Virus record (IMG/VR): IMGVR_UViG_3300037248_000128
Span: 1-59,642 of that record
Direction: 5' to 3' (one strand)
Source: a virus
Taxonomy: Duplodnaviria; Caudoviricetes
DNA length: 59,642 nt
Shown one piece after another: positions 1 through 42,059 of this stretch. The notes under the pieces were generated by a model that saw only the letters and a program-made list of their open reading frames with translations, did no database searches and was not told the origin of the DNA. Position 1 is the stretch's first letter. Every line of letters begins with the position of its first letter. The position numbers and the translations under genes are program-made.

Positions 1-1896
1 CCTCGGGTCGATCTCCGCAGCCTCTTGCTCTTTCGATAGCAGAAACCGCGCGACCAACCCGTTTAAACTTCGGCTGTGCAAAGTGGAAGTCCCCGCTTCT
101 TCCGCACGCACGCGTTCATAAGTGAGCCCACGCGAAAGCAGCGGCCCCCGCCGCCAGTTCGTCCAAGCCCGGATCGCGAGCGCCGTCGCGATCACCCGGT
201 CGTCGTTTTCGTTGTTCGGCGCCGCGATCTGGTCGCCGTTCTGCTCGACGATCCGCATCTCCTCGAGCAGCGGCTTGGAACGAATCGCTAACTCGCGGGT
301 CGTGTAGGCCCCGCGCATGCCATACATGATCTCCTGCTTCGTGCGCCAGGTGGACTCAAAATTTGCACAATAGCCGCGCCCCATCGTGTCGGGACGGTTG
401 TACAGATACCAGCGGGCCATCTGCATGGCCGACTCCCAATCGCGCGCGCGGACAGCAGCGAAGTTGGCATCGGCTTGGAGCTGCTGCCGCAGAGTATCCC
501 ATTCCATCATGATGACGCGGCCCGCTCCGCCCGTCAGTTCGACGTTGCAAATACAGTCGACGTATGCGCCAGCGAGGTGCGCCAGAACCCACGCCGCGTG
601 CTTCACCTCGACGTTGTTCGCCGCGTACTCCGCGACTTGAACCATCTTGTCGGCGTAGCAGCGCCAGACCGACGCGACGTGGCAGTCCGAGTGCTCGTTC
701 AGACCCCACGCCGGGTCCATGCCGATCACGTACTCGCCGCCGTCGACCGGCTGCTCCCAGATCCGAAGCTCGACGGTCTCGATGTCAAAGTCCTCGTCCG
801 CCGGGTCGCACTTCTCCAGCTTCATGTCGAAGAACGTGCCGTCCAGCCGATACCGCCAGCCCGTGTACGCGAACTCGTTCTCCGCGGTCGCTCCAATGGT
901 CTCGGCGGCTTCCTCGATGGTCTGGAAGTCCTTTTGAATCATGCGGGTCTGGAAGAAGCTCGTCCCGCTCATCACGAACGCGTCTTCGGCTATCCAGGGC
1001 TGGTTCTGCTCCAGCATGCCTTCGGTGTCGGCGGTGACCGTCGCGTCCTTCCAACGACGCCACGCTAGCTGCTCGGGTGTGATTTTGTGGCCGTAGCGCT
1101 CTTGCACGGCGAGGATGCGTTCGCGCTCGGCGCCAGACGCCGGAGCGGTTCCATACTTCAAGTAGTTCGGGTCGCTGCGCGGGATACGGTTTACGTTTGA
1201 CGACCACCAACCCACAAACGCCGAGCGCTTCGAATAGACATCTTGGAACCCGGAGTACCACTTGGTTCGCCAGTGCCCGAACCCCTTGGCGGTCGATTCG
1301 TAGATGTAGAGTCGGTCAGGATTTGCCTGAGAGAACGCTTCCTCGAACGACGCGAGCGCTGCCGGGCTTCCATAGCTAGCGCATTCGGTCAGATGGGCCA
1401 TCGCATAGCCCTCGCCTTCGGCCCACGACGACCCTTTTTCTCGGGTGCCAGCAACTTTAAAATCTATGCGTGACCCATTGGAAAACCTCATGAAATTCCT
1501 GTTGTCACCGCCCTTGACGATACGAAATTCGTCTCCGAAGTAGCCCTGCGGGAACGACTCGATGTAGCGGCGCAAAATCGCCCGGTTCTTGTCACGGTTC
1601 TTCTCGTCCTCAGTGACCAGCGCGGCCGTGAGATTGTCGTGCATCGCCAGCCAAAAAAGGTCGACAGCCAAGCTGACGGTTGTGATCCCGAGTTGCCTAC
1701 TCTTGAGGAAGTAGAAGATGCGCACGCCCTGCTCGAGGCCGGTCGCTAGCTCCTCCAAAAACCGCTTCTGGCTGTCCCAGAGTTCAAGCGGCACCCCGCG
1801 TTCATCCGGACTCGAAATCTCTTTCGAACTGATGCGGAGATCGCGGATGAACTCCTCAAACAGCGGAAGCCACCGCGTCGCGGCCGAGCGCGCCAT
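1..1896 (-). CDS. terL: Terminase large subunit (3' end runs off the window)
   Basis: Absent from the ORF track (no stop in window). Manual translation from ATG at 1896: MARSAATRWLPLFEEFIRDL...FYFLKSRQLGITT (Walker A-like)...AHLTECASY (Walker B)...YIYESTAKG (motif III); both ends of the span are in the same frame down to base 1. Confidence 0.92.
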   Translation of the reverse strand, partial: MARSAATRWLPLFEEFIRDLRISSKEISSPDERGVPLELWDSQKRFLEELATGLEQGVRIFYFLKSRQLGITTVSLAVDLFWLAMHDNLTAALVTEDEKNRDKNRAILRRYIESFPQGYFGDEFRIVKGGDNRNFMRFSNGSRIDFKVAGTREKGSSWAEGEGYAMAHLTECASYGSPAALASFEEAFSQANPDRLYIYESTAKGFGHWRTKWYSGFQDVYSKRSAFVGWWSSNVNRIPRSDPNYLKYGTAPASGAERERILAVQERYGHKITPEQLAWRRWKDATVTADTEGMLEQNQPWIAEDAFVMSGTSFFQTRMIQKDFQTIEEAAETIGATAENEFAYTGWRYRLDGTFFDMKLEKCDPADEDFDIETVELRIWEQPVDGGEYVIGMDPAWGLNEHSDCHVASVWRCYADKMVQVAEYAANNVEVKHAAWVLAHLAGAYVDCICNVELTGGAGRVIMMEWDTLRQQLQADANFAAVRARDWESAMQMARWYLYNRPDTMGRGYCANFESTWRTKQEIMYGMRGAYTTRELAIRSKPLLEEMRIVEQNGDQIAAPNNENDDRVIATALAIRAWTNWRRGPLLSRGLTYERVRAEEAGTSTLHSRSLNGLVARFLLSKEQEAAEIDPR

Positions 1897-2097
1897 CTAG
1901 TGCACCGTCACCTTAACAAACGGCGCCAGCATCTCGGTCCACCGCTGATTGCGCGTCCCCGCCGTAAACGCGACCGCCTCGGCCGGGTCCTCGGTCTCGT
2001 CCCCTTCCGCGTCGTAGAGGTGCAGGATCGGCACGGTGCGGAGGTCATCGCGCACTGCATAGCCTCGCTCGAGATTCACGGCGATGATCCGCGCCAT
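1897..2097 (-). CDS. Hypothetical protein
   Basis: 66-aa ORF whose stop abuts the terL start. Confidence 0.65.
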   Translation of the reverse strand: MARIIAVNLERGYAVRDDLRTVPILHLYDAEGDETEDPAEAVAFTAGTRNQRWTEMLAPFVKVTVH

Positions 2098-2106
2098 CGC
2101 TTAGGG

Positions 2107-2388
2107 TTACAGCAAATCGGGCGTGGTGTCGTCTTTGGCTGGACTCGTCTTCAGTCCCTTCTTCAGGACGTGCTCGCGCCACGTTATCAGCCACCCGCTC
2201 GCCGCCCACATTGTCAGACCGATAGGCAGGAGCGCCGCAAGTGGTTGCGGGCCGCAACTACCGAAGCCGTGTAGGGCCACCGCTATCATCGTCGCGCCGC
2301 CGCTCAACACGGACAAAGCGATACCCGAAACGCCCATGACCACGAGCGCCTTGAGAAGCGGGTCCATCGGCGCGTCTTCGTCGCTCAC
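2107..2388 (-). CDS. Small membrane protein
   Basis: GTG start overlapping upstream TGA; two hydrophobic segments. Confidence 0.6.
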   Translation of the reverse strand: MSDEDAPMDPLLKALVVMGVSGIALSVLSGGATMIAVALHGFGSCGPQPLAALLPIGLTMWAASGWLITWREHVLKKGLKTSPAKDDTTPDLL

Positions 2389-2567
2389 AGCAATTCGCCC
2401 GCGATGTCGTCTTTGGTCAGGTTGGGGTTCTCGGCGCGGTAGCGGCGGCGGGAGTCCTCGTAGGCGCGGTTGAGCACGAGGGCTTCGGCCTGCGTCAGCG
2501 GCGCCGGTTCTGGCAGCGGTTGCTGGCAGTTGGGGCAGCGGCAGGGCGGGAAGGGGGTGTAGGTCAC
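2385..2567 (-). CDS. Hypothetical protein with CxCxxC
   Basis: Start/stop overlap with both neighbours. Confidence 0.55.
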   Translation of the reverse strand: MTYTPFPPCRCPNCQQPLPEPAPLTQAEALVLNRAYEDSRRRYRAENPNLTKDDIAGELL

Positions 2568-2770
2568 AGCCGCCGCCAGCGGTCGGGCGACCAGCGCTCA
2601 AACCCACGTTCGATGCTGCCTCGAAGCCACGCTGCATCTTCCTGCGACCAGTACATCTTAGCCGTCTGATAGCGCATCTTGCCGGTCCAGTGGTCTGCCC
2701 AGCGGCGCTGACCCATGACCCACATGCCGGACTTGGGCGCGGTTTCCATCGACTCCCACAGATATTTCAC
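2564..2770 (-). CDS. Hypothetical protein (DUF551-like WxxMETAPK)
   Basis: WESMETAPKSG...WRRL pattern common in small phage proteins. Confidence 0.6.
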   Translation of the reverse strand: MKYLWESMETAPKSGMWVMGQRRWADHWTGKMRYQTAKMYWSQEDAAWLRGSIERGFERWSPDRWRRL

Positions 2771-3318
2771 AGCCCGTAATACTCCCGCGTCCCCTCGACT
2801 GGCGGCTCGATCGGCAGCTCGTCTTCGATGTCCTCGATCGTCGGCTCTGGCGGTTCGGCCTGCGCTTCGTCTTCGGGGACGAGTCTGTGAGTCACGACGC
2901 GGCCGGCGCAGTGGGAGGTGTGCTTGATGGCGAGGGCAACAGTTTCAGCGGCGGAGCAGCCGGCGAGCAGGCAGGCGTAGGCGAACTCGTGGCAGGAACC
3001 CTCGACAGCGAACGGCGCGTCCGATCTTTCGCGTTCGTACTTGTTTCGGATCAGGAAAATCTCGCCCGCCGGATTGACGAGCACGGCGCCGAACTCGTCC
3101 TTCTTCTCGCATGGCTCGGGCTTTTTGTCGGGCGGGAAGCCCGCCAGGGCCCATTCCTTGTAAGCTTGGATGTAAACGACATCGCCTGCGCAGCCTAGGA
3201 GCGATCCGTCTGGAAGGCGGATCACCTTGTCCGTTGTCTCGTGGACCATGACGTAATCAGTCGCCCAGACGCCTGTGTCGCAGCACATCTCGCCCGCGCG
3301 CCAAACGATAATCGTCAA
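2767..3318 (-). CDS. Ntn-hydrolase / proteasome beta-subunit-like protein
   Basis: TTG start giving N-terminal Thr (M-TIIVW...CDT...KVIRLPDGSLLGCAG...EGS); HslV/beta-subunit-like pattern. Confidence 0.65.
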   Translation of the reverse strand: MTIIVWRAGEMCCDTGVWATDYVMVHETTDKVIRLPDGSLLGCAGDVVYIQAYKEWALAGFPPDKKPEPCEKKDEFGAVLVNPAGEIFLIRNKYERERSDAPFAVEGSCHEFAYACLLAGCSAAETVALAIKHTSHCAGRVVTHRLVPEDEAQAEPPEPTIEDIEDELPIEPPVEGTREYYGL

Positions 3319-3482
3319 GGCTCCACCTCCAGCACCGGCAGCAATATCTGCCGAATCACCTCTGCCTCGGAGATCCCGAGTCGCGCCGCCCGCCGCTTCA
3401 GCGCCTCCGCAGCCGCGCGCTCGACCGTCGCCTTGATCTCGGCGTCCTTGCGGTCGTCCTTGCGGGAGCCGCGGGGCGGCAT
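3315..3482 (-). CDS. Ribbon-helix-helix (CopG-like) DNA-binding protein, 55 aa
   Basis: Manual ORF MPPRGSRKDDRKDAEIKATVERAAAEALKRRAARLGISEAEVIRQILL; fills the gap between neighbours exactly. Confidence 0.65.
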   Translation of the reverse strand: MPPRGSRKDDRKDAEIKATVERAAAEALKRRAARLGISEAEVIRQILLPVLEVEP

Positions 3483-3860
3483 TCAGAACGCGAGTCCCAT
3501 CCCGAACAGCCGACCGATTGGACTCCAGCAGATTTTGCCGGTGCGCTGGTAGTAGCGGAGCATCTTCACCGCCCGCGCCGCCATCTCCTTGCCTTGCCCC
3601 GACCAGTTGAGTATCGGCCATTCGAGGTACGCGCGTCGGCTTTGTCTGCGCGACATGCCCAAGCGGGCGCCGATTTCGGTTTCTGAGTAGCGCCACCATT
3701 CCATGCCCAGCGTGCGGGCCGCCATGCCCATGACGCACACCGATGGATTGTGCATATCGAAGTGGTCGCCGTGGCGCTCGATGAACGCGATCACCTTCGG
3801 CACATTGTCCACGCGGCCGATTTCCCGCGTGTAGACGACTTCAGCCCCATCAAACGGCAT
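3483..3860 (-). CDS. Hypothetical protein
   Basis: 125-aa ORF with GGAGAG RBS. Confidence 0.65.
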   Translation of the reverse strand: MPFDGAEVVYTREIGRVDNVPKVIAFIERHGDHFDMHNPSVCVMGMAARTLGMEWWRYSETEIGARLGMSRRQSRRAYLEWPILNWSGQGKEMAARAVKMLRYYQRTGKICWSPIGRLFGMGLAF

Positions 3861-3869
3861 GTCTCTCTC

Positions 3870-4103
3870 CTATGAGAAAAGGTCTTTCAGGTTCGCGGCG
3901 TAGAACCGGCCTGCCGATGGCGCGTCTTTGAAGGCGTCCCAGAGTTCGGGCGTCATCTGGCTGGTCGAGTAGGTGCGGCCGTCGCGCAGGAAGGTCACCG
4001 TCGCCTCCCCCGTTTCAGAATTGAAACTGGCCGACGCGACGTTCGAACTGTCAAAGACGTGCAGCTCGACCTTGGAGTCGTCGCCTGAGTCGCTGTAGGT
4101 CAA
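3870..4103 (-). CDS. KTSC domain protein
   Basis: SSNVASASFN...VTFLRDGRTY...FKDAPSAGRFY matches KTSC pattern. Confidence 0.8.
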   Translation of the reverse strand: MTYSDSGDDSKVELHVFDSSNVASASFNSETGEATVTFLRDGRTYSTSQMTPELWDAFKDAPSAGRFYAANLKDLFS

Positions 4104-4333
4104 TGCACGTCCTTTCTCAGGGTCCATTCGCCGCAATAGCCCTCTTCGCTCGACATGAGCGGAAAAAAGGACATCTGGCGGGTTGAGGTTTGCGGCTGCA
4201 GCCCGTCGCGGCCGGGGACCATTTTCACGTCGCTCACGACCACCGGAGTCGGCGGAAATCTGCGGCAGATGCCCTCAGTTGGCGGGTCCTCGCTTTGGAG
4301 GAAGAACTTACAGTTGGAACACTGCTCCTTCAT
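4100..4333 (-). CDS. Small Cys-rich protein
   Basis: CSNCKFF...GICRRFPP...CGEW. Confidence 0.7.
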   Translation of the reverse strand: MKEQCSNCKFFLQSEDPPTEGICRRFPPTPVVVSDVKMVPGRDGLQPQTSTRQMSFFPLMSSEEGYCGEWTLRKDVH

Positions 4334-4953
4334 GGCCGCCCCGCTAGGCCGCAGTAGCCGTGGCGCCCACTGTTTGGGCGCGGCCCTTCGTTCAGTCGGG
4401 CATACTCCCCGTGAACATCCCTAGCCGCTGCATCGTAGGCCGCCGCTGCAGAGTCTTCGTCCGCGAAGGTCCCTAAGTGAAGGTGAACCCCCGACTTGGC
4501 TATTTGGGCCGCCCACTTACCGCTTTTGGTCATGAAAACTCCGCGATGCCTAGACCGACCTCCACGCGCCGCTGAGTTAGCTGCGTTTTGGGCGGGCGTG
4601 ACGAGTCGTAGGTTTCCGCGACGATTGTTTAGGGTGTCGCCGTCCCGGTGATCCACAAACATGCTCTTCGGGATCACGCCCCAGATGCGGCTAGCGATTT
4701 CGCGGTGCAGGTATCCCGCATCATTTTTCGCGTAGCGGCCAGACCACCAATATCCCCACCCGGCCACGTCACTATCGATCCTGTCGATGACTACCGACCG
4801 GTCGCCGCTTATCAGAAACCGCCAATCAGGCTGCCAGCGGAACGCCATGCAGGCCGACCCGATGCAAAACCCATCTGCATCGTGCGTGCCGCCGCGATAG
4901 CCCTCAACGGGACACGCCTTGGCTTTCGCTTCATCTTCGGTCATCGGGTCCAC
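4330..4953 (-). CDS. HNH endonuclease with AP2 domain, inside a small Cys-rich protein
   Basis: VDHRDGDTLNNRRGNLR (HNH_3); RGV..KWAAQI..HLGTF..AAAAYDAAA..HGEYARLN (AP2). Confidence 0.85.
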   Translation of the reverse strand: MDPMTEDEAKAKACPVEGYRGGTHDADGFCIGSACMAFRWQPDWRFLISGDRSVVIDRIDSDVAGWGYWWSGRYAKNDAGYLHREIASRIWGVIPKSMFVDHRDGDTLNNRRGNLRLVTPAQNAANSAARGGRSRHRGVFMTKSGKWAAQIAKSGVHLHLGTFADEDSAAAAYDAAARDVHGEYARLNEGPRPNSGRHGYCGLAGRP

Positions 4954-4995
4954 CTCTCGCCCATTCTTGGGCTAAATATGCGTCTGTCGCAAGGG

Positions 4996-5430
4996 CTAGA
5001 ACTCGCCGTCCGCGACCTGAAAGCAGGCGATCCCCTCGCGCCGCCACATATCCACGACCTGCTTGCGATCATCGAAGATCACGTCCGGGCGGGCATCGCA
5101 CGCCGTCAGAAACTCGCGCTTGATCACATGGTCGGGCCGATGGTCGCCGGCCTTGCGCATCCGCGTTAGGTAGGCGGGGGGAATCTTGGCGCGGCGCCAC
5201 AGCCAGCGCTCAGTCTCTTTGCGCACCGCATCGGAACGGCCAGACCAAATCTCGACCCTATGATCACCGTCCGTGAGGTTGAGCAAAAGATCGATGGCTG
5301 GCCGGATCAGTCCGTCCATACCGCACGCCGCGAAGAACCCGTCCCAGTCCTTCGTCTCGCCCTGGATGAAGTGCAAGCGGTGCGTCAGGTCGGCTAGCGT
5401 GCCGTCCAAGTCGAACACGTAGAACGCCAT
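4996..5430 (-). CDS. HAD-superfamily phosphatase (PNK 3'-phosphatase-like)
   Basis: FDLDGTLAD, SGR, IFDDRKQVVDMWR motifs. Confidence 0.85.
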   Translation of the reverse strand: MAFYVFDLDGTLADLTHRLHFIQGETKDWDGFFAACGMDGLIRPAIDLLLNLTDGDHRVEIWSGRSDAVRKETERWLWRRAKIPPAYLTRMRKAGDHRPDHVIKREFLTACDARPDVIFDDRKQVVDMWRREGIACFQVADGEF

Positions 5431-5431
5431 G

Positions 5432-6055
5432 CTAAGCTCCTAGCCTCTGGAAGCCCCAAACCTCGCCGACAGTCGGCTCCGGCTCGTCCCACTCGAACTT
5501 GTGCTCTTTCAGGAGCGAGATGGCGGCCTTGTGGATCGCCTCGCCGCGTTCCTCCGCTGAGATGGCGGCTTGGATTTGCGCGGCCTGAGCCTCGAACATC
5601 GGGCGCAGGCGATTCGGGTTTTTGCCTTTCGGCTTGAAGCGGGCCGCGATGCCCTTCACGCGCTTGAAGTCGGTCTTGAAGCCCTTCTGCTTCTCGACGT
5701 TCTGGCGGATGCGCTCGTTCAGGATGCGGACAGCATCGGCGATCAGGTCGACGGTCTCAGTCTTGCGACCACGGGCTTCGGCTTGCTGGGCGGCTTCGGT
5801 CAGAGCGCCGAACGCCGCGCTCTGGGCGCCGGACGCCAGCGTGTCGGGCTCGAGGTTGTAGACCATGCCCGTCTCGTCATAGCGCGCGCGGCGGCGGTCG
5901 CTCGAAAGCACCTCGCTCGCCAGGCACAGCAGCGCGAACGCCTCGGCGGACCCGCCAGCGTCAGGATGGAGCGTTTTTGCCTTTGCTCGGTACGCCTTGC
6001 GAATCGTCGCCTTGTCGGCGTCGCGCTTGATGCCGAGCACGTCGTAGAGGTTCAT
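5432..6055 (-). CDS. DnaJ (J-domain) protein
   Basis: LYDVLGI...IRKAYR...HPD...RRARYD. Confidence 0.9.
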   Translation of the reverse strand: MNLYDVLGIKRDADKATIRKAYRAKAKTLHPDAGGSAEAFALLCLASEVLSSDRRRARYDETGMVYNLEPDTLASGAQSAAFGALTEAAQQAEARGRKTETVDLIADAVRILNERIRQNVEKQKGFKTDFKRVKGIAARFKPKGKNPNRLRPMFEAQAAQIQAAISAEERGEAIHKAAISLLKEHKFEWDEPEPTVGEVWGFQRLGA

Positions 6056-6106
6056 GAGTCCACCTTCGCGCCATTTCTGGCCCAAAAATGAGCGGCGGGC
6101 AAGCGG

Positions 6107-6745
6107 TTAGGCGACGGGCTCGGTCTTGATGATGTGCGCGGGGTTGCCGACCACCGTGCAGCCGGGCGGAACGTCCTTCAGCACGACCGCGCCAGCGCCG
6201 ATTGTCGCCCACGCGCCGATCTTAACGTCCGGCAGGATCGTCGCCGCGGCGCCGACGTAGACGCCGTAGCCGAGCGTGACGCGCCCGCAGATCGTGGCGC
6301 GCGGCCCCACGAAGCAGCACTTGCGCACCCGCGTTTCGTGACTCAGCAGCGCGCCGGAGTGAATCGTCGTCCAGTCCCCGACTTCGCAGCCGGCTTGGAT
6401 GCGCACGTCTTCTTGGATGTAGCGTCCGCCGTTCGCCCGCTCACGCGCGGCGCCGGGCCAGATCAGATCGATCAGATAGCCGCCGAGGTCAGTGACTCGT
6501 TTCGAGGTTTCCCAGCGCGCGCGGGTCGAACCGGAAATCTCGTTCGCGAAGACGTAGCCGTCTCGGATCAGCGGCGGCACCGCGTCCCAATCGAAAACGT
6601 CGGGGCCTTGCTTCGCCGGATTGCCGTCGATCGCGCAGTTGAACGCGTACCGCGGCTCGCCGACCAGCCTGTCCGCTTCCTCGATGGCGTCGATGATCGT
6701 CCGCGTATGCGGGTTGTTAGCCCCGAGCACGCAGACCTTGATCAC
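6107..6745 (-). CDS. Hexapeptide-repeat sugar acetyltransferase (NeuD/PglD-like)
   Basis: Left-handed beta-helix repeats, IGAGAVVLKDVPPGCTVVGNPA. Confidence 0.85.
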   Translation of the reverse strand: MIKVCVLGANNPHTRTIIDAIEEADRLVGEPRYAFNCAIDGNPAKQGPDVFDWDAVPPLIRDGYVFANEISGSTRARWETSKRVTDLGGYLIDLIWPGAARERANGGRYIQEDVRIQAGCEVGDWTTIHSGALLSHETRVRKCCFVGPRATICGRVTLGYGVYVGAAATILPDVKIGAWATIGAGAVVLKDVPPGCTVVGNPAHIIKTEPVA

Positions 6746-6866
6746 GACGCCTCAGGCTTCGCTTTCTCAGCGCGCGACTGTCGGTTCAGCCAGCGCTGAA
6801 GGTTCTTCACGCTGTTGATCGGCTCCTTGCGATCCGAGTTGCCGTGTTTCGGCTTCTGGAACGTCC

Positions 6867-7139
6867 TCACGACGCAGCGATCTGCGCCGCCAAAGTCGCG
6901 TTGGCCGCCTGGAGCTTGGCCTGAAGCGCGGTGATAGCCGCCAGGTTTCCGCCCTGGATGATCGCCGCGTCGCCGCCAATCTGCGTGACGATCGTGTCGA
7001 CGGTCGAGGCGATCTGGCCGACGGCCGTTCCGATGGCGCCGGCTGCTGGGCCGCCGAGCGAGGCGAGCGGGGCGAACTCGCTGATCAGCGCGAGAGCTTG
7101 TTCGGCGGCGGATTCGATTTGGGCGAGAGTGATGGCCAT
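6867..7139 (-). CDS. Ala-rich lysis-cluster protein
   Basis: 90 aa, RBS, downstream of a lipoprotein. Confidence 0.6.
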   Translation of the reverse strand: MAITLAQIESAAEQALALISEFAPLASLGGPAAGAIGTAVGQIASTVDTIVTQIGGDAAIIQGGNLAAITALQAKLQAANATLAAQIAAS

Positions 7140-7148
7140 GAGCGTTCC

Positions 7149-7466
7149 TTACTTGAGGTCGGCGGCGATCTGGGCGGCAAGCGCCGTCACGGCCGTAAGC
7201 TGAGCGGAGACGGTCGCTGAGTCGCCTTTCGCGGCGGCGGCGTCGGCGAGCTGCACGGCGGCGTACGCCTTCACGAGCAACGGCTTGACCGTCGCCTTGG
7301 TGGCCGCCGACATGGTGGGCAGCGCCGCGAGGTAGGCTTGCGCGGCGCCGTTGTAAGCGACATCCACGGAGGTATCGCCCTCGGCAATCGCCAGCGTTGT
7401 CGATGTGCCGGATGCGCACGCGGCGAGACTCAGCGCCGCGGCGCCGATCAGGAAAAGTCGTTTCAC
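7149..7466 (-). CDS. Lipoprotein (possible spanin component)
   Basis: MKRLFLIGAAALSLAAC lipobox; follows the endolysin. Confidence 0.75.
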   Translation of the reverse strand: MKRLFLIGAAALSLAACASGTSTTLAIAEGDTSVDVAYNGAAQAYLAALPTMSAATKATVKPLLVKAYAAVQLADAAAAKGDSATVSAQLTAVTALAAQIAADLK

Positions 7467-8638
7467 GTCGTCGTTCCTCCGATTTGGCTGAGACGATTTG
7501 TCGCAAGCGCGGCCAACTGAGCCGGGGTGATGCCGGATGCGGCGATGCGACCCGGCACGGTGCTGTTCGCGTAGGAGAGCACGCTCGCAACGTAAGCGTT
7601 GTGCACGTCAGCGGTCGCGTGCGCGTCGGCGTACGTGACGCCTTGGGCTGCCAGCGCGTTCACGCCGTTCTCGATCGCCTTCACGACGATCTGCCCAGCC
7701 GCCGACTGCGTTTGTACGTGGAAGTACTGCATCGCGCGGCCTGCGAGCCAGATCGCGAGCGGCAGGACGATCCCAGTAATAATGTAAGGCGCGAGCGCGT
7801 TGATCAGCGCGGTGAAGTCGATCACATGCGTCGTGGCGCCCGTCGCTCCGGCTCCCGCGGCGGCAGCGGCCGTGGCGGCGGCGGCGATGAGCGGGCCGTG
7901 CGTCTGGATGATCGGCTGCTTCGGGGGAGAAGGCGGAACAGTCGACAGTGGCGGGTCCGGTAGGTTGGGGATGTGGACGGGTGTGGGGGTCGGTGTCGCC
8001 GGCGCCTGCACTGGCTGCGGGACTGGCTGACCGGCCGCGGCGGCCGGATCGGCTACGGTCGAGACATCGAGGTCGACGTTGAGCGTCTGGCCCGCCGCAG
8101 TGATGTTCACGCTCTGCGCGTATTGAACGATCGGCGCGATGAGCGATTGCTCGCCCCCGGAGCGGAGGTCCCAGCACCAGACGTTCGCGGCGCCGAAGAT
8201 CGCGGCCATCGCCGCTTGGTTTTCATGGCTGCAATAGACCATCGCGCGGAAGCCGCCCGCCTTCACGCCGCCGCACCACGCAGTCAGGTGGTCGGTCTGA
8301 TTCTGCGGAACCGGCGCTCCGTTCTCGGTGTCGAACGCCACCCCGAAACCGACTGGGTAGCCTTTGGCTTGGAGTTCGTTGACGCAGGAAGTCGCCTCGG
8401 CCGCGCCAGCCGGTCCGCTGACGAGGTAACTGCCGGGCCCTGTTATCTGACCGCCGACCCAAATCGGGATGACGTTCAGGCCGGATGCGGTGATTTCGGC
8501 GAATGTCGGCCAACTCGCGTTCGAGTGACTCGGGGCCTCGAGATAAGAGGCTGTCCAAGAGAAGCCCTGCGCTTTCAGATCGGCGAGCGCTGCTGCGCCT
8601 GGGTAGATGTCTGTGTCGATTCCGCGGAAGGGCATCAA
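7463..8638 (-). CDS. Endolysin (DUF1906/GH25-like glycoside hydrolase) with C-terminal membrane domain
   Basis: GIDT..YPG, VAFDTE, MVYCS, IVQYA, NVDLD; Pro-rich linker; hydrophobic C-terminal domain. Confidence 0.75.
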   Translation of the reverse strand: MMPFRGIDTDIYPGAAALADLKAQGFSWTASYLEAPSHSNASWPTFAEITASGLNVIPIWVGGQITGPGSYLVSGPAGAAEATSCVNELQAKGYPVGFGVAFDTENGAPVPQNQTDHLTAWCGGVKAGGFRAMVYCSHENQAAMAAIFGAANVWCWDLRSGGEQSLIAPIVQYAQSVNITAAGQTLNVDLDVSTVADPAAAAGQPVPQPVQAPATPTPTPVHIPNLPDPPLSTVPPSPPKQPIIQTHGPLIAAAATAAAAAGAGATGATTHVIDFTALINALAPYIITGIVLPLAIWLAGRAMQYFHVQTQSAAGQIVVKAIENGVNALAAQGVTYADAHATADVHNAYVASVLSYANSTVPGRIAASGITPAQLAALATNRLSQIGGTTT

Positions 8639-8832
8639 GGCTCCAGGTTGCGCCGTCAGAGCTTCGAGGGGTGTACAGGGTTGGGATTCTTAGGCCCCGA
8701 CGGCGCAAGCGGATGCTTAGGCCAAAAATGCGCGGCGTCAATCCGCTGTCTGGCAAAGGCGGGGCAGATATGTTGACCTTGCGGGACAGCAACCGCCCTG
8801 ACTTTCGAGGCGGAAGCCGAGATCGGGATCGT

Positions 8833-9216
8833 CTAAGCCAGCGCCGCCGCGACCGCCTGGCGGCCAGCTTCGGTCAACCGGTAGCCGCACATATGCCAGC
8901 CGTCGCCTTGGCGCTCGATGGCATCTTGGCCGAGTCGGCGCTTGAGCCTCGAGATGTAGACCGCGACGTTATTGGTGTGAGTGCTGCGGTCCTGCGTGCC
9001 CCACTTCGGCGGCATCTCCTCGTCAACTTTCCACTTCGGGATGAAGCGCTGGCAGCGGTTCAGCAGCAAGAGCACGCGCGCTTCGTTGGGCGAGATTTTC
9101 AGCCGACAGCGCAGCGTGTGAATCTGATCGTCCAGCGTTGAACCGTAGAGAATCGTTCGAAGTTCAACGATCTCCGCTTCAAGCTCGGCGCGCGTCATCT
9201 TCGCTGGCGGCTTCAT
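8833..9216 (-). CDS. Stand-alone OmpR/CtrA-type winged-helix DNA-binding protein
   Basis: EARVLLLL...NVAVYISRLKRRLG...IE...GYRL (Trans_reg_C pattern); no receiver domain. Confidence 0.7.
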   Translation of the reverse strand: MKPPAKMTRAELEAEIVELRTILYGSTLDDQIHTLRCRLKISPNEARVLLLLNRCQRFIPKWKVDEEMPPKWGTQDRSTHTNNVAVYISRLKRRLGQDAIERQGDGWHMCGYRLTEAGRQAVAAALA

Positions 9217-9464
9217 CGCCACATGACCCAGATCAGGAACAGCAGCACGCCGACGATGGTGAGCCAGACGCCCGGTTTCATGCGATCCCCCGCCACTTCG
9301 CCAGATCGGCGTTCGCCGCCTTGTCCAGCCCAAGCCGAATCAGCAGCGCGCGCTCGGCGCCGTACTTCCATACGAGGACTCTCGCGTGCAGCGACATCTT
9401 CGGAACCGGCGCGAGTTTGAAGGCAGGCGCGGTCATCCTTCGCCAGCTCCTTCTGGGCGGTTCC

Positions 9465-9656
9465 TCACTTCGCTTTCTCGCAGCCGGCGTAGGTGATCAG
9501 CATGTCCTCTATCTGCTCGGCCATGTTGTCGAGACCCGGCTGGTTGTCGATGTAGCCGTCCTCGTAGAGGTCGCGCAGCACGCGCGCGGCGGCGATAAGC
9601 TGCGAGGCTTGCGCGGGTCGGATCAGTGGTTCCCGGGATAAACTCTCATCACTCAT
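9465..9656 (-). CDS. Hypothetical protein
   Basis: 63-aa ORF with GGAG RBS. Confidence 0.6.
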   Translation of the reverse strand: MSDESLSREPLIRPAQASQLIAAARVLRDLYEDGYIDNQPGLDNMAEQIEDMLITYAGCEKAK

Positions 9657-9680
9657 TCTGGTTGTCTCCGCTTGGCTCGA

Positions 9681-9938
9681 TCATCGCGGGCCGCCGAACG
9701 TGGTCTGCGCGTCCTTCGTCAGGCGGTCGGATTGCTCTGGAGTCAGTTCCGCGGGCCGGATTTGCGCCTCAAGGTCTGCGATTTCCTTGTCGATGGCCAG
9801 ACCGCGCGCCCTGATCGCCTTCAGCATCGCGAGGCGGGCGTGCCGCTGCACGATGTCGTGCGCTTCGTAGCAGACCACGCGCTCCTCAGGCGTGGTCCAG
9901 CCGCAGTGGATGATCAGGCGGGCCTCGTCGAGAGTCAT
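9681..9938 (-). CDS. Hypothetical protein
   Basis: MTLDEARLIIHCGW..., GAGG RBS. Confidence 0.55.
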   Translation of the reverse strand: MTLDEARLIIHCGWTTPEERVVCYEAHDIVQRHARLAMLKAIRARGLAIDKEIADLEAQIRPAELTPEQSDRLTKDAQTTFGGPR

Positions 9939-10086
9939 CGCTTCCTCGCACTGAGCTGCGCGCTCACGCTCCAACAACCGCCGATGATCCACACCATCCA
10001 GCCTTCGGGCGTTATGTGAAACAGCCCATATCGTTGCCAGAACAGCACGCAGCCCGTCAGGCCGATTACGATAGCCAGCAGCATCC

Positions 10087-10362
10087 TCACGGCTCCCTCC
10101 GCTCGACAGGTGGGCGCATGAACTCGCGCCGCACCAGTTCGACGAAATGGGGGTCAATCGGAATGCGATTGTCGAGCACGAGTTTCAGCATGGGCATGGG
10201 CGTTTTCCACCGTCGCGTCCGCAAAAGGCTCCGAACCGCCGAGTCGATACGGTCCATGCGCCGCAGCGCCGCCTCGTCTTCGTCCGACATCTCCACATGG
10301 TCCGGCGTCATCCCGTGGGCATCCCAAAGGCGTCGCATCGTTGCATTCGGATGCTCGCTCAT
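10087..10362 (-). CDS. Hypothetical protein
   Basis: Start overlaps the upstream stop. Confidence 0.6.
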   Translation of the reverse strand: MSEHPNATMRRLWDAHGMTPDHVEMSDEDEAALRRMDRIDSAVRSLLRTRRWKTPMPMLKLVLDNRIPIDPHFVELVRREFMRPPVERREP

Positions 10363-10829
10363 TCCTTCGGCGCCTTCTTCTGCCAGTCGAACCAGTCCTT
10401 CGCCTCCGCGTCGACCCAGATCTCACGGTCGCCATCGTAGCCTTTGAGCTTCCGAAACACCGCCAGCGGGGCTCCCGTACGGCCGTCGGTACCCATCGTC
10501 TTCGTCACCATGCCAATAGGCCGCGTGGTACGCCCGGCTGGGCTCGAACCAGCAACCAGACCGTTATGAGCGGCCGGCTCTACCTCTTGAGCTACGGGCG
10601 CTTCGTCGACCGCATCCATCGGATCGATCTTCGGCGCGGCCTTCGCGACAGGCGGCGGCAAAATCGGCGTCTTCGATAGCGCCTTCTTCCCCGAACCCAG
10701 TCCAGCCTCAATCAACTCCACAATCGCGGCCATCCGAGAGCCAGTCCCACGCCAAACCTCAAGGCGCTCAAACACGCTCGCCGGTATCTTCACCAGAACC
10801 GAAACCCGCGCCTCCGCCATCAGGTCCAA
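10359..10829 (-). CDS. Hypothetical protein, RHH-like N-terminus; contains a nested tRNA
   Basis: VSVLVKIPASVFERLEVWRG.GSRMAAIVELIEAGL; overlaps both neighbours. Confidence 0.6.
   Translation of the reverse strand: MDLMAEARVSVLVKIPASVFERLEVWRGTGSRMAAIVELIEAGLGSGKKALSKTPILPPPVAKAAPKIDPMDAVDEAPVAQEVEPAAHNGLVAGSSPAGRTTRPIGMVTKTMGTDGRTGAPLAVFRKLKGYDGDREIWVDAEAKDWFDWQKKAPKE
10526..10601 (-). tRNA. tRNA with CAT anticodon (Ile2-like, or Met)
   Basis: GCGCCCGTAGCTCAAGAGGTAGAGCCGGCCGCTCATAACGGTCTGGTTGCTGGTTCGAGCCCAGCCGGGCGTACCA: 76-nt cloverleaf with encoded CCA. Confidence 0.88.
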
Positions 10830-11221
10830 TCCCCGTATTTGACCGGTTGCACCCGATCACCTGTCGCATATCGCGGCGTCGGGTCATGCGCTCCCGCGCT
10901 CATCGTCCTGATCCGCCCCTCGGCGTTCAGCAGCGCGCCTTCATAAATCGCCTGGATGACCCGATGATCAAAGACGAGCTTTCCCGTCCGACCGTGAGTC
11001 TCTTCGGCAAACGACCGCGACCGGTAGACCAGAACGTCGGCGATCTTTCCGAGCGACCGAAGCGCCTCGCGCGCCCACGCCCGCTCCTTTTCGGTCATCA
11101 CCACGAACGCGTCGCCGTCCTCAAGCAGCTTCATCGCCGCAGTCGAGCGACCAGTCTGACGACACGCATCCTCGTAGACCCGCATCCCCACCATCGCAGC
11201 CGCTTTGATCCCGAAGTCCAC
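10820..11221 (-). CDS. Hypothetical protein (RQTGRST P-loop-like)
   Basis: First gene after the promoter region, 133 aa. Confidence 0.65.
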   Translation of the reverse strand: MDFGIKAAAMVGMRVYEDACRQTGRSTAAMKLLEDGDAFVVMTEKERAWAREALRSLGKIADVLVYRSRSFAEETHGRTGKLVFDHRVIQAIYEGALLNAEGRIRTMSAGAHDPTPRYATGDRVQPVKYGDWT

Positions 11222-39648: not shown

Positions 39649-40380
39649 ATGACGAAAACTGACCGAGAGAGCCTTGCCGGCGCATTGTCGTCCAAGGCAA
39701 CCTTCAAGGGCTTCAGCGTTTGGCTGGTCGGCGATACGCCGGTCATCACTCACGCGTGGAGCGAAAAAGCGCGGCGCGAGATGCTGCAGAAGCAGGTCAA
39801 GGCGACCAAGGGCGGGAAAGAGGCCCGCGATCCCGAGGCCGATTTTGTGTCGAGTCTCTACGAGATGGGCGACGGTGCCTACGGCTTCCCGGCGATGGGC
39901 GTGAAGAACTGCATTCTCAGCTCGGCGCACAAGGACAAGGGCATCCCAAGGTCGGCGGTGATGGCCGGTCTGTGGATCGACGCCGACATGGTGCGCACTC
40001 GACCGGCGCTCGCCGGCGCGGTCTGCGACATGCCGCTGATCCGCATCTACGGCACCGATCCGGAGATGCGGGAGGACATGGTGAAAATCGGCTCTGGCCT
40101 GAACAAGATCGCCAATCTGAGCTACCGCGCGCAGTTCACCGTGTGGGCGATGAAGGTGACCGGCCGGTTCAACACCACGATCCTGACGCCTGAGGCGCTG
40201 GCGTTCCTCATCCAAGAAGCTGGACTCGCGTCTGGCCTCGGCGAGTGGCGCAACGAGCGCCGCGGCATGTTCGGCGCCTTCCACCTCGCCGACGTGGACG
40301 AAGAGGCCGCATGGGAAGCCTACGCCGACGGCAAGGGCGACCTTCCGGTTCCGGCGTCCTATCGGCAAGCGGCGGAGTAA
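39649..40380 (+). CDS. Stand-alone Cas7/RAMP-like protein (VIPR-type effector candidate)
   Basis: N-terminal beta strand + G.TP.I.H; YGFPAMGVKNCI (P...K helix); C-terminal Gly-rich loop AGLASGLGEWRNERRGMFGAF; AGGAG RBS. Confidence 0.78.
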   Translation: MTKTDRESLAGALSSKATFKGFSVWLVGDTPVITHAWSEKARREMLQKQVKATKGGKEARDPEADFVSSLYEMGDGAYGFPAMGVKNCILSSAHKDKGIPRSAVMAGLWIDADMVRTRPALAGAVCDMPLIRIYGTDPEMREDMVKIGSGLNKIANLSYRAQFTVWAMKVTGRFNTTILTPEALAFLIQEAGLASGLGEWRNERRGMFGAFHLADVDEEAAWEAYADGKGDLPVPASYRQAAE

Positions 40381-40890: not shown

Positions 40891-40897
40891 ACGATTT

Positions 40898-41600
40898 GGC
40901 TGGGACCGGCGGCGCTTTGTCTGAGTGTCGGGCCGGGGCAGGGAAAAGCAGGCGCGGCCACGAAATGTGACGCAAGTCGGCGCGTGTCGCGAACGGGCAT
41001 GGCCGGATGGGCTGGGCTTGGTGGAGCCAGTCAGCGGAGGGAATGGCAGGTCTTTGCTCGGCAGGCGGGGCATCGAAGGTGATGGCGCATTGCGGAGCGG
41101 GAAGGTCATGTTTTGAGCGTCTCGTGTCGGCTCGTGATGGCAAGGCAGGCAGTGCTCGGGGGAGCGGGGCAGAGATCGTTGATGCAGCGCTCGGCCCAGT
41201 TAGGTGAGGCAGGCTCGGAACGGCCAGTCCCAGCAAGTGACGGAACGGCTCGGGCAGGTCGGCTTGGCAGGCGTGGACGGGCTTTGTCCGGCAGAGGCGA
41301 GCTAGTCGCGTAACGCCATGTCTCAGCTTGGCTCGGCAGGAATGGATATGCGAGGCCCGTTGTCGCCCGTCCCGGTAGGGACCGTGATGGCATCTCGCGG
41401 AACGGCGAGGCTGGATAGGAACGGCTGTGCCCGTAGCGGATTGGCTCGGTTGGGCAGGCTGGGAACGGTCGTGAGGGGCGAGCGTCGGCAATGCCCGGAC
41501 GGGAGGTGTTAGGCAAGGCTGGCGGGGTTGGGAAAGGCAAGTAGTCGATAGGACAGTCTCGTCTTCGCATCGCCCGGGCAGTCGTGGCCCAGTAGGGCTG
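40898..41600 (+). ncRNA. Array of about 11 GGY-NN pentamer units (putative guide RNAs)
   Basis: 5-nt periodicity; junction pentamers (mostly GGCAG/GGCTG) + 4-mer at 40947, 41001, 41060, 41144, 41208, 41266, 41335, 41409, 41453, 41517, 41596; no credible ORF. Confidence 0.85.
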
Positions 41601-41603
41601 GCC

Positions 41604-42059
41604 CTATGCGAACCGGCGCGCGTAAAGCGAACCGGTTATCGAGTAGCCCCGCGCTTGGAGCAAGTATTCGAGCGCGGGGTGACCGATACGACTCTCGATC
41701 ACGATGACGCACGGCTCGTCTTTCGACAAGTCCGCCTCCATGAAGTCGAACAGACCGCCCGCCGCGCCGACGTTTCGGTGCTCAGGCGCCACCCAGATCG
41801 TATCGTCGCGGGCGAACTTATGGTTATAGTGGGCGTGCCTCGGCACAACCGTCATGATGCAGTAGCCGATCAATCGACCGTTGAGGCGTGCGGTGTAGGC
41901 GAACAGCAGTCCAGCGCGGTTCGCTCTCTCGTAAAATCCGAAGTCAGGGTCAAGCGGCGTCTCGACAAGCCGCAACCCAAGTTCCGCCCAGTGCACGGGC
42001 AGCAGCGGACGCAACTCGTCGATCACGTCGCTATAGTTTTCGCGGCGGTATTCGATCAT
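41604..42059 (-). CDS. GNAT-family acetyltransferase
   Basis: GRLIGY...IWVAPEHRNVGAAGGLF...RGY. Confidence 0.8.
   Translation of the reverse strand: MIEYRRENYSDVIDELRPLLPVHWAELGLRLVETPLDPDFGFYERANRAGLLFAYTARLNGRLIGYCIMTVVPRHAHYNHKFARDDTIWVAPEHRNVGAAGGLFDFMEADLSKDEPCVIVIESRIGHPALEYLLQARGYSITGSLYARRFA

Follow-up and report, generated by a model that had tools for sequence, protein, structure and literature searches.

VIPR systems, of which seven types have been described in preprints of 2026 (10.64898/2026.04.26.720920; structures in 10.64898/2026.04.26.720927), comprise a minimal RAMP protein, Vipr, with a G-loop and a thumb, an accessory vap gene, and vrRNAs of alternating GGY and NN. The NN pairs recognize double-stranded DNA with one base skipped between pairs, usually at the codon wobble position, and in staggered arrays the vrRNAs overlap by 1 nt (10.64898/2026.04.26.720920, the latter in the legend of Fig. 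S18). Operons of Type II Bub (6E.2) encode BubA, a ubiquitin-like protein (Ubl), BubBD, an E2-E1 fusion, and BubE, a DUF6527 serine peptidase, and are described as being without a JAB peptidase (10.1101/2024.11.21.623953). Here we describe a locus in the IMG/VR virus record IMGVR_UViG_3300037248_000128 (Duplodnaviria; Caudoviricetes), whose complete sequence of 59,642 bp is the window analyzed throughout. The locus carries an array with the grammar and layout of staggered vrRNAs downstream of a Vipr-like RAMP gene, and one unit of this array matches, with one base skipped between dinucleotides, one site of one gene family, the skipped base falling at the codon wobble position. The family is identified below as bubBD, and we lean, with a little better than even confidence, towards the view that the unit is a VIPR guide that silences bubBD as a phage counter-defense.

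A VIPR array and its predicted guide unit

The open reading frame (ORF) at the head of the locus encodes 243 aa, and its sole sequence match in the Protein Data Bank (PDB) at E≤10 (phmmer) was Vipr of SUSP1 (36pp_D), at E 9.3e-4. SYR is common to the two aligned sequences, and GLGEWR stands opposite GVGDWR (G-x-G-[DE]-W-R); by numbering, these stretches appear to hold the GGY-contact residues R138, D177, W178 and R179, which in SUSP1 Vipr are reported to hold G1, G2 and Y3 (10.64898/2026.04.26.720927). An AlphaFold model of the protein (pLDDT 78.4, pTM 0.76) was compared with known structures by Foldseek, and its best folds were Csm3, Cmr4 and type VII Cas7; 25 matches were found at E≤0.001, the best ones with E values of 4e-5 to 1e-3 and TM-scores of ~0.4. 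Neither this protein nor the 167-aa accessory protein encoded directly after it has a Pfam family, and the PHROGs to which they belong, 4652 and 15946, respectively, are both of unknown function.

Between the stops of the 167-aa ORF and a convergent GNAT gene lies a non-coding stretch of ~710 bp (40891-41603), which shows a strong G-over-C skew (+0.18 to +0.36). A dynamic-programming parse, in which bases 1-3 of each pentamer are GGY-like and bases 4-5 are free, resolves positions 40926-41605 entirely into pentamers, and no Rfam family matches this array. Among the 137 array pentamers, G occupies position 1 in 74% and position 2 in 77%, C or T occupies position 3 in 70%, and positions 4-5 are near uniform. 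The pentamers form ~10 units; of the 10 defined, 7 have GGCAG or GGCTG at the end. In most cases a unit begins on the last G of the one before it, giving a phase jump of -1 that occurs seven times, at ...AG/G or ...TG/G. These 1-nt overlaps fit the staggered layout as it is given in the legend of Fig. S18 of the VIPR preprint (10.64898/2026.04.26.720920), the part of that source with which they were compared. The locus thus combines the GGY/NN pentamer grammar (in at least 4 units), staggered 1-nt overlaps of adjacent vrRNAs, homology to Vipr, a Cas7-like Vipr fold, the 1-nt skip rule at the sequence level, and the layout of a vipr gene followed by a second gene and a downstream array. Because it does so, we conclude from its sequence that it is a VIPR system with a staggered array. 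A further 37 loci related to it were found in IMG/VR.

One unit of the array had drawn attention in an earlier note, made from the letters of the window, which placed it at 41340-41413 and read from its NN dinucleotides a nucleotide-binding motif of ThiF/E1-like enzymes. The boundaries were nearly right: the best parse is one nucleotide longer, at 41339-41413, and an alternative parse of equal score extends the unit from 15 pentamers to 16, ending at 41418. In the best parse the unit ends in a terminal GGCTG and overlaps both neighbors by 1 nt. Its GGY conformity of 35/48 exceeds the maximum of 32 among 113,766 other positions of the phage, both strands included. The dinucleotides are real, since steps of 5 from 41347 read TA GA CC GT CC CC AG CC AT AT GC AC GA, with AT preceding them at 41342-43. 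The decoding was also right: the reverse complement is TCN GTN GCN ATN ATN GGN CTN GGN GGN ACN GGN TCN TAN ATN, which translates as S V A I/M I/M G L G G T G S Y/stop I/M. By the rule of NN with one base skipped, the unit reads [H/Q]SVAIIGLGGTGSYI, i.e. [H/Q]-S-V-A-I-I-G-L-G-G-T-G-S-Y-I. The motif so predicted is a glycine-rich loop, and Pfam ThiF matches cover that stretch in the target proteins described below. The phage itself lacks such a gene, as the earlier note had stated, with 0 gapped-pattern matches at three or fewer mismatches and no ThiF domain.

To search for the target, the 13 central NN were used as a gapped pattern of 26 bases, and 16 NN (32 bases) were used for scoring of loci. 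Metagenome contigs yielded four exact 26/26 matches, all in frame in one gene at SVAIIGLGGTGSY[VIL]LD..AKT[PS], with wobble bases that differ among them. By means of peptide patterns located elsewhere in the protein, 80 relatives were fetched from species genomes; at least 152 relatives exist, and they span many bacterial phyla and some archaea. In all of the relatives, the best guide match in each ~20-kb locus fell at the same BubBD codons. Scores of at least 21/26 were reached in 69 of the 80 fetched relatives (73 of 84 with the four exact contigs added), and the best scores over 16 NN were 30/32. The motif is almost invariant and is read at codon positions 1-2 only, so that one guide fits most members of the family.

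A series of controls excludes a chance match of the guide to bubBD. Twenty shuffles of the NN order, run against 1.43 Mb of target-family loci, reached a maximum of 23/32 as against the 30/32 observed, and the 31 observed sites at ≥80% compare with a shuffle mean of 0.0. When the skip was set to 0, 2 or 3 nt, the best scores were 22, 20 and 21 of 32, respectively, with no site at ≥80%; a skip of 1 gave 30/32 and the 31 sites. The other four pentamer registers scored 22-27 of 32, with 0, 0, 0 and 1 sites at ≥80%. In five whole genomes that carry the gene, the pattern matched exactly once in each, and the pattern written backwards matched 0 times. Moreover, a gapped search of 401 alphaproteobacterial genomes, as the earlier note had proposed, found no site at ≥23/26 in 398; the three matched genomes carry the BubBD-type motif (checked by translation in the two other than the Ensifer centre genome), and the backwards control gave 0. 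Since 398 of the 401 genomes are without a match and the remaining matches are of BubBD type, housekeeping ThiF/MoeB is not the target. Neither of the two outcomes that would have told against the earlier note's reading, an absence of genomic matches or matches confined to housekeeping genes, was observed.

The predicted target gene and the phage around the guide

The target protein of ~393 aa carries DUF6791 (E 1e-46 to 1e-58) and ThiF in contigs L002-L004 of the four exact matches, L001 being a 3'-cut piece. In the same three contigs it scores 478-540 bits against NCBIfam NF004805, for which the cut-off is 352. The guide site is its glycine-rich nucleotide-binding loop, at residues ~180-193. 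DUF6527 was found downstream of bubBD in 4/4 loci tested (L005, L016, L036 and L004). The upstream gene encodes Multi_ubiq in L016, L036, L002 and L003, and in L005 only a weak HAD match came from the upstream ORF that was tested. The genes are annotated in this order, Multi_ubiq-bubBD-DUF6527, on a conjugative Rhizobium etli plasmid in RefSeq, and an invariant FSxKP serine stretch was seen in a three-sequence alignment. The E2-E1 fusion, with BubA upstream and BubE downstream, identifies the target, at the level of sequence and gene order, as BubBD of Type II Bub (6E.2) operons; no search specific for JAB was made. DUF6791 would correspond to the E2-like half of the fusion, from the published description of BubBD, the term DUF6791 itself being found in none of the literature searched.

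The earlier note had named CBASS Cap2 and Bil as examples of anti-phage systems with E1-like domains, and neither identity held. The PADLOC E1-E2 models match weakly (E 1e-3 to 4e-8), over ~50-140 residues around the Rossmann loop. Cap2 was rejected at 24 bits for NCBIfam 6A-MBL cap2_3 (cut-off 320), and a housekeeping ThiF was rejected at 22-29 bits for TIGR02356 (cut-off 275) in the target proteins.

Several observations concern the surroundings of bubBD. On Rhizobium etli plasmid pRetNXC12d (L131, locus 788-11158), the Bub operon is flanked on one side by a gene of 1134 aa with a UvrD-helicase domain, and on the other by a PD-(D/E)XK nuclease gene and a second UvrD-helicase gene. ORFs of 1116-1134 aa similar to that of L131 lie upstream in L036 and L056, and may represent a conserved partner module. 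A 9-NN core pattern matched one viral contig, L130. Positions 1-700 of this IMG/VR contig, at its edge, contain a BubBD-like fragment, ..PIIGLGGTGSYLLDFVMKTP.., with stops just upstream and a stop soon after; this is probably a remnant or a misassembled end.

The features of the VIPR locus are collected in Table 1. The array stretch at 41 kb is contained in two soil-metagenome DNA runs, of which one may be its source, and a promoter/terminator scan of the + strand found nothing above shuffle level. Elsewhere in the window, a tRNA-Met (CAT; 10526-10601, minus strand) is the sole tRNA of the phage. Most of the large phage proteins belong neither to a PHROG nor to a Pfam family, and a very great distance separates this phage from those in culture. 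A search of it for tyrosine integrases, which did not extend to serine recombinases, gave none.

Table 1. Coordinates of the VIPR locus and of the gene that bounds it.
Feature	Position	Strand	Evidence
vipr gene, 243 aa, Cas7-like RAMP	39649..40380	+	ORF; PDB sequence match; AlphaFold model; Foldseek
vap-like accessory gene, 167 aa	40387..40890	+	ORF directly 3' of vipr, same strand; "vap" by position alone
Staggered vrRNA array, ~10 GGY/NN units with 1-nt overlaps	40926..41605	+	Parse and position frequencies
Predicted vrRNA guide unit against bubBD, NN = AT TA GA CC GT CC CC AG CC AT AT GC AC GA (TG)	41339..41413	+	Parse and decoding
GNAT acetyltransferase gene, convergent, bounds the array, outside the system	41604..42059	-	Pfam Acetyltransf_1, E 8e-6

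Proposed silencing of bubBD and the alternatives

By analogy with the VIPR systems of SUSP1 and of P. fulva, Vipr protomers would coat the ~75-nt RNA, one per pentamer, such that the GGY bases are hidden and the NN pairs presented. The NN filament would then pair with the sense strand of bubBD at codons ~180-193, and an R-loop triplex inside the gene would block transcription of bubBD and of the downstream bubE. Published Bub operons tend to lie in mobile elements or defense loci (10.1101/2024.11.21.623953; PMC13373217). Of 544 such operons, 219 adjoin CapW or CapH+CapP and others adjoin CapK+CapS, and a reporter under the control of a Bub regulator was undetectable until DNA damage (PMC13373217). 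Because many Bub operons stay off until DNA damage releases control by CapW, CapH+CapP or CapK+CapS, a roadblock made early in infection could keep the damage-induced operon from switching on. In this way the phage would neutralize a pathway, carried on a plasmid or island, that is harmful to it, which would amount to RNA-guided counter-defense. We hold more tentatively, as possible but somewhat short of even, the wider proposition that VIPR arrays are also anti-defense weapons, that this guide can shut the damage-induced Type II Bub in many lineages, and that Bub is a real anti-phage system.

A number of observations weigh against counter-defense. No phage restricted by Bub has been reported so far in the publications on these operons, and none in E. 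coli (10.1101/2024.11.21.623953; PMC13373217). The anti-defense role is therefore plausible and something that we infer, since published Bub operons are damage-induced and lie in mobile or defense loci, and none has been protective against phage so far. Exact 26/26 matches number 0 in 185,579 species genomes and 0 in IMG/VR, the four exact contigs being unclassified metagenome contigs. When 377 windows of the gene are ordered by how conserved their codon positions 1-2 are, the guide site comes 34th, a rank that is biased because the top windows overlap the peptides used for retrieval. There is no codon-box escape signal: Leu is encoded by TTR in 23% of cases at the site and 18% in the background (p 0.25), and Ser by AGY in 14% as against 36%. 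The scaffold of the unit is loose, with strict GGY in 5/16 triplets and GGN in 9/16. No RNA run is listed as containing the locus, and production of vrRNA is a prediction. Searches for a host or for relatives of the phage gave no assignment: tblastn of a 465-aa protein of the virion region, run against 50,697 phage records, returned no relative, nor did blastn of the locus; the ESM Atlas returned viral RecT clusters only; and the 920-aa tail protein found nothing in five Bub-bearing genomes. The nearest Vipr homologs in the phage database belong to Gordonia and Mycobacterium phages (31-36% identity), which is only a weak hint of a host. An alphaproteobacterial host is not supported by these searches. 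One codon statistic favors the guide. Among 86 family members, the conserved Ser codons at the site are TCN in 86%, compared with 64% for Ser in the rest of these genes (Fisher p 6e-6), which is contrary to what escape would leave.

The remaining guides also count against this reading. On the 84 loci, no site at ≥80% was seen for units U1-U5b and U9-U10; U8 has 18 such sites against a shuffle mean of 18.9 and, at 8 NN, is too short to separate from shuffles. As none of the other units except U8 reaches that level, several guides do not converge on one element here, unlike in the cases presented by the VIPR authors. None of the 37 related VIPR loci carries this guide (best 18/26; shuffle maximum 20), and their other guides gave 18 seed hits on Bub loci as against 24 for the control, which is not above control level. 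Unit U3 (41064-41148) was considered as evidence of guide convergence on Bub. Its best matches in Bub loci are all in ImmA/IrrE (CapP-like) metallopeptidase genes, ~1.1-1.6 kb upstream of bubBD, at E-x-E-A-N-x-F-A-A-x-L-L-M-P. It was rejected for this purpose, with a peak of 25/34 (shuffle maximum 24) and 17/34 on the Peptidase_M78 gene of the exact-target contig L002. By its sequence, U3 is aimed at the ImmA/IrrE family level, and a Bub-linked CapP is a candidate for its mark. In the closest related VIPR locus (L086, 82% Vipr identity), a guide at 5502-5561 agrees in 10/12 NN, including a run of 9, with the HEXXH motif (FTIAHELGH) encoded by an ImmA/IrrE-type gene beside Bub in L035. This VIPR clade may repeatedly target ImmA/IrrE genes, the overall count of seed hits being at control level.

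The most serious alternative is that the guide is aimed at a rival mobile element, a conjugative or mobilizable plasmid, integrative island or satellite, which carries Bub as cargo. Silencing would then serve a contest between mobile elements, like that published for SUSP1 and P. fulva. In publications, VIPR targets satellites, prophages and other VIPR systems (10.64898/2026.10.15.759431; 10.64898/2026.04.26.720920), and BubBD is often plasmid-borne, occurring in 127 of 72,556 plasmid records, 96 of the 127 being mobilizable or conjugative. The 142 ORFs that flank 21 Bub loci include transposases, ParA and a plasmid replication initiator, alongside capP (3), a reverse transcriptase/DRT, a CBASS cyclase, AbiE and DrmD, as well as ordinary metabolic genes. 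A guide meant to cripple such an element would, however, be expected to hit its genes for recombinase, replication or a switch, the kind hit in published cases, and not a cargo enzyme. The neighborhoods of Bub are heterogeneous, with no single conserved element. Moreover, the rival would not be a phage, because none of 50,697 phage records contains BubBD and a relative was confirmed to be encoded on no more than one IMG/VR contig. Should the phage be excluded by the cargo, this explanation merges with counter-defense. We regard competition between elements as unlikely, though still to be reckoned with.

A takeover of host physiology, in which Bub is a DNA-damage stress pathway and the phage stops Ubl from being conjugated to proteins of the host or the phage in the damage response that phage replication provokes, is in our estimation improbable. 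Bub is induced by DNA damage in general (PMC13373217), and the failure to find phage protection in E. coli (10.1101/2024.11.21.623953) would agree with such a role; but a patchy, plasmid-rich spread across phyla and defense-type regulators and neighbors are typical of accessory conflict systems and not of core stress physiology. Slightly more improbable still is an inactive or accidental unit (a decayed or never-processed part of the array, or a match without function), which the loose scaffold, with 5/16 strict GGY, and the uniqueness of the guide to this phage among the 38 loci compared would favor, but against which stand the shuffle, skip, register and backwards-pattern controls, a perfect 26/26 match to natural alleles, which speaks for recent selection, ends and overlaps like those of neighboring units, and the hypervariability of guides between relatives that is the published norm for VIPR (10.64898/2026.04.26.720920).

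Comparison with known systems

The machinery, comprising VIPR, its code and its programmable guide, was already in print in 2026; what is new here is the target and the role that it implies. The terms "ubiquitin", "anti-defense" and "counter-defense" have 0 occurrences in the two main texts searched of the three VIPR preprints, and a listing across all three likewise shows 0, a count that does not cover the supplementary target tables. A phage guide against Bub is not reported in the literature searched, which did not cover the VIPR and Bub supplements (data S3, Table S1). VIPR has so far been presented as a tool of conflict between mobile elements, and a guide on a cellular or plasmid-borne immune-type operon would extend it to counter-defense. 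If counter-defense is the correct reading, the unit would be the first evidence from the phage side on what Bub does and the first case of RNA-guided counter-defense at the level of transcription, and would imply that transcriptional silencing can act against defenses that are induced only after infection. A natural guide against bubBD would name a candidate phage-defense pair. More broadly, decoding of vrRNAs can assign targets at the level of protein motifs across phyla, which permits VIPR arrays to be surveyed for the defenses that phages care about.

With respect to Type II Bub (6E.2), the correspondence lies in the target and not in the content of the window, since the phage is without a Bub gene. 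The target shows the DUF6791+ThiF fusion, the flanking multiubiquitin and DUF6527 genes and, in some cases, capP-type neighbors. Phage RNA-based anti-CRISPRs and CRISPR-carrying phages attack host immunity or islands by contiguous CRISPR guides or decoy repeats. In contrast to these, the effector here would be a VIPR filament with a gapped code, and the predicted outcome is repression of an immune-type operon.

The staggered VIPR arrays are similar in most respects. They share with this locus a phage-borne Vipr and a second small gene, a downstream GGY/NN array with 1-nt overlaps, the reading of NN with a skipped wobble base, a target within coding sequence, and the absence of a self-target. 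This locus differs in that its predicted target is the gene of a cellular or plasmid-borne ubiquitination-like enzyme, whereas the targets named in the main text for those arrays are a satellite, prophage regulators and other VIPR systems, and its scaffold is looser than the GGY of SUSP1. In the case of SUSP1 VIPR and the F5 satellite recombinase, a single satellite is the common target of several guides, and infections demonstrated the effect (10.64898/2026.10.15.759431). As in that system, the register of the guide follows the codon periodicity of a conserved gene, so that synonymous drift does not free the target, and transcriptional silencing by a phage guide during infection is predicted here. 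The differences are that a single guide, known from its sequence, is involved, and that its target family spans many phyla, rather than one family of satellites.

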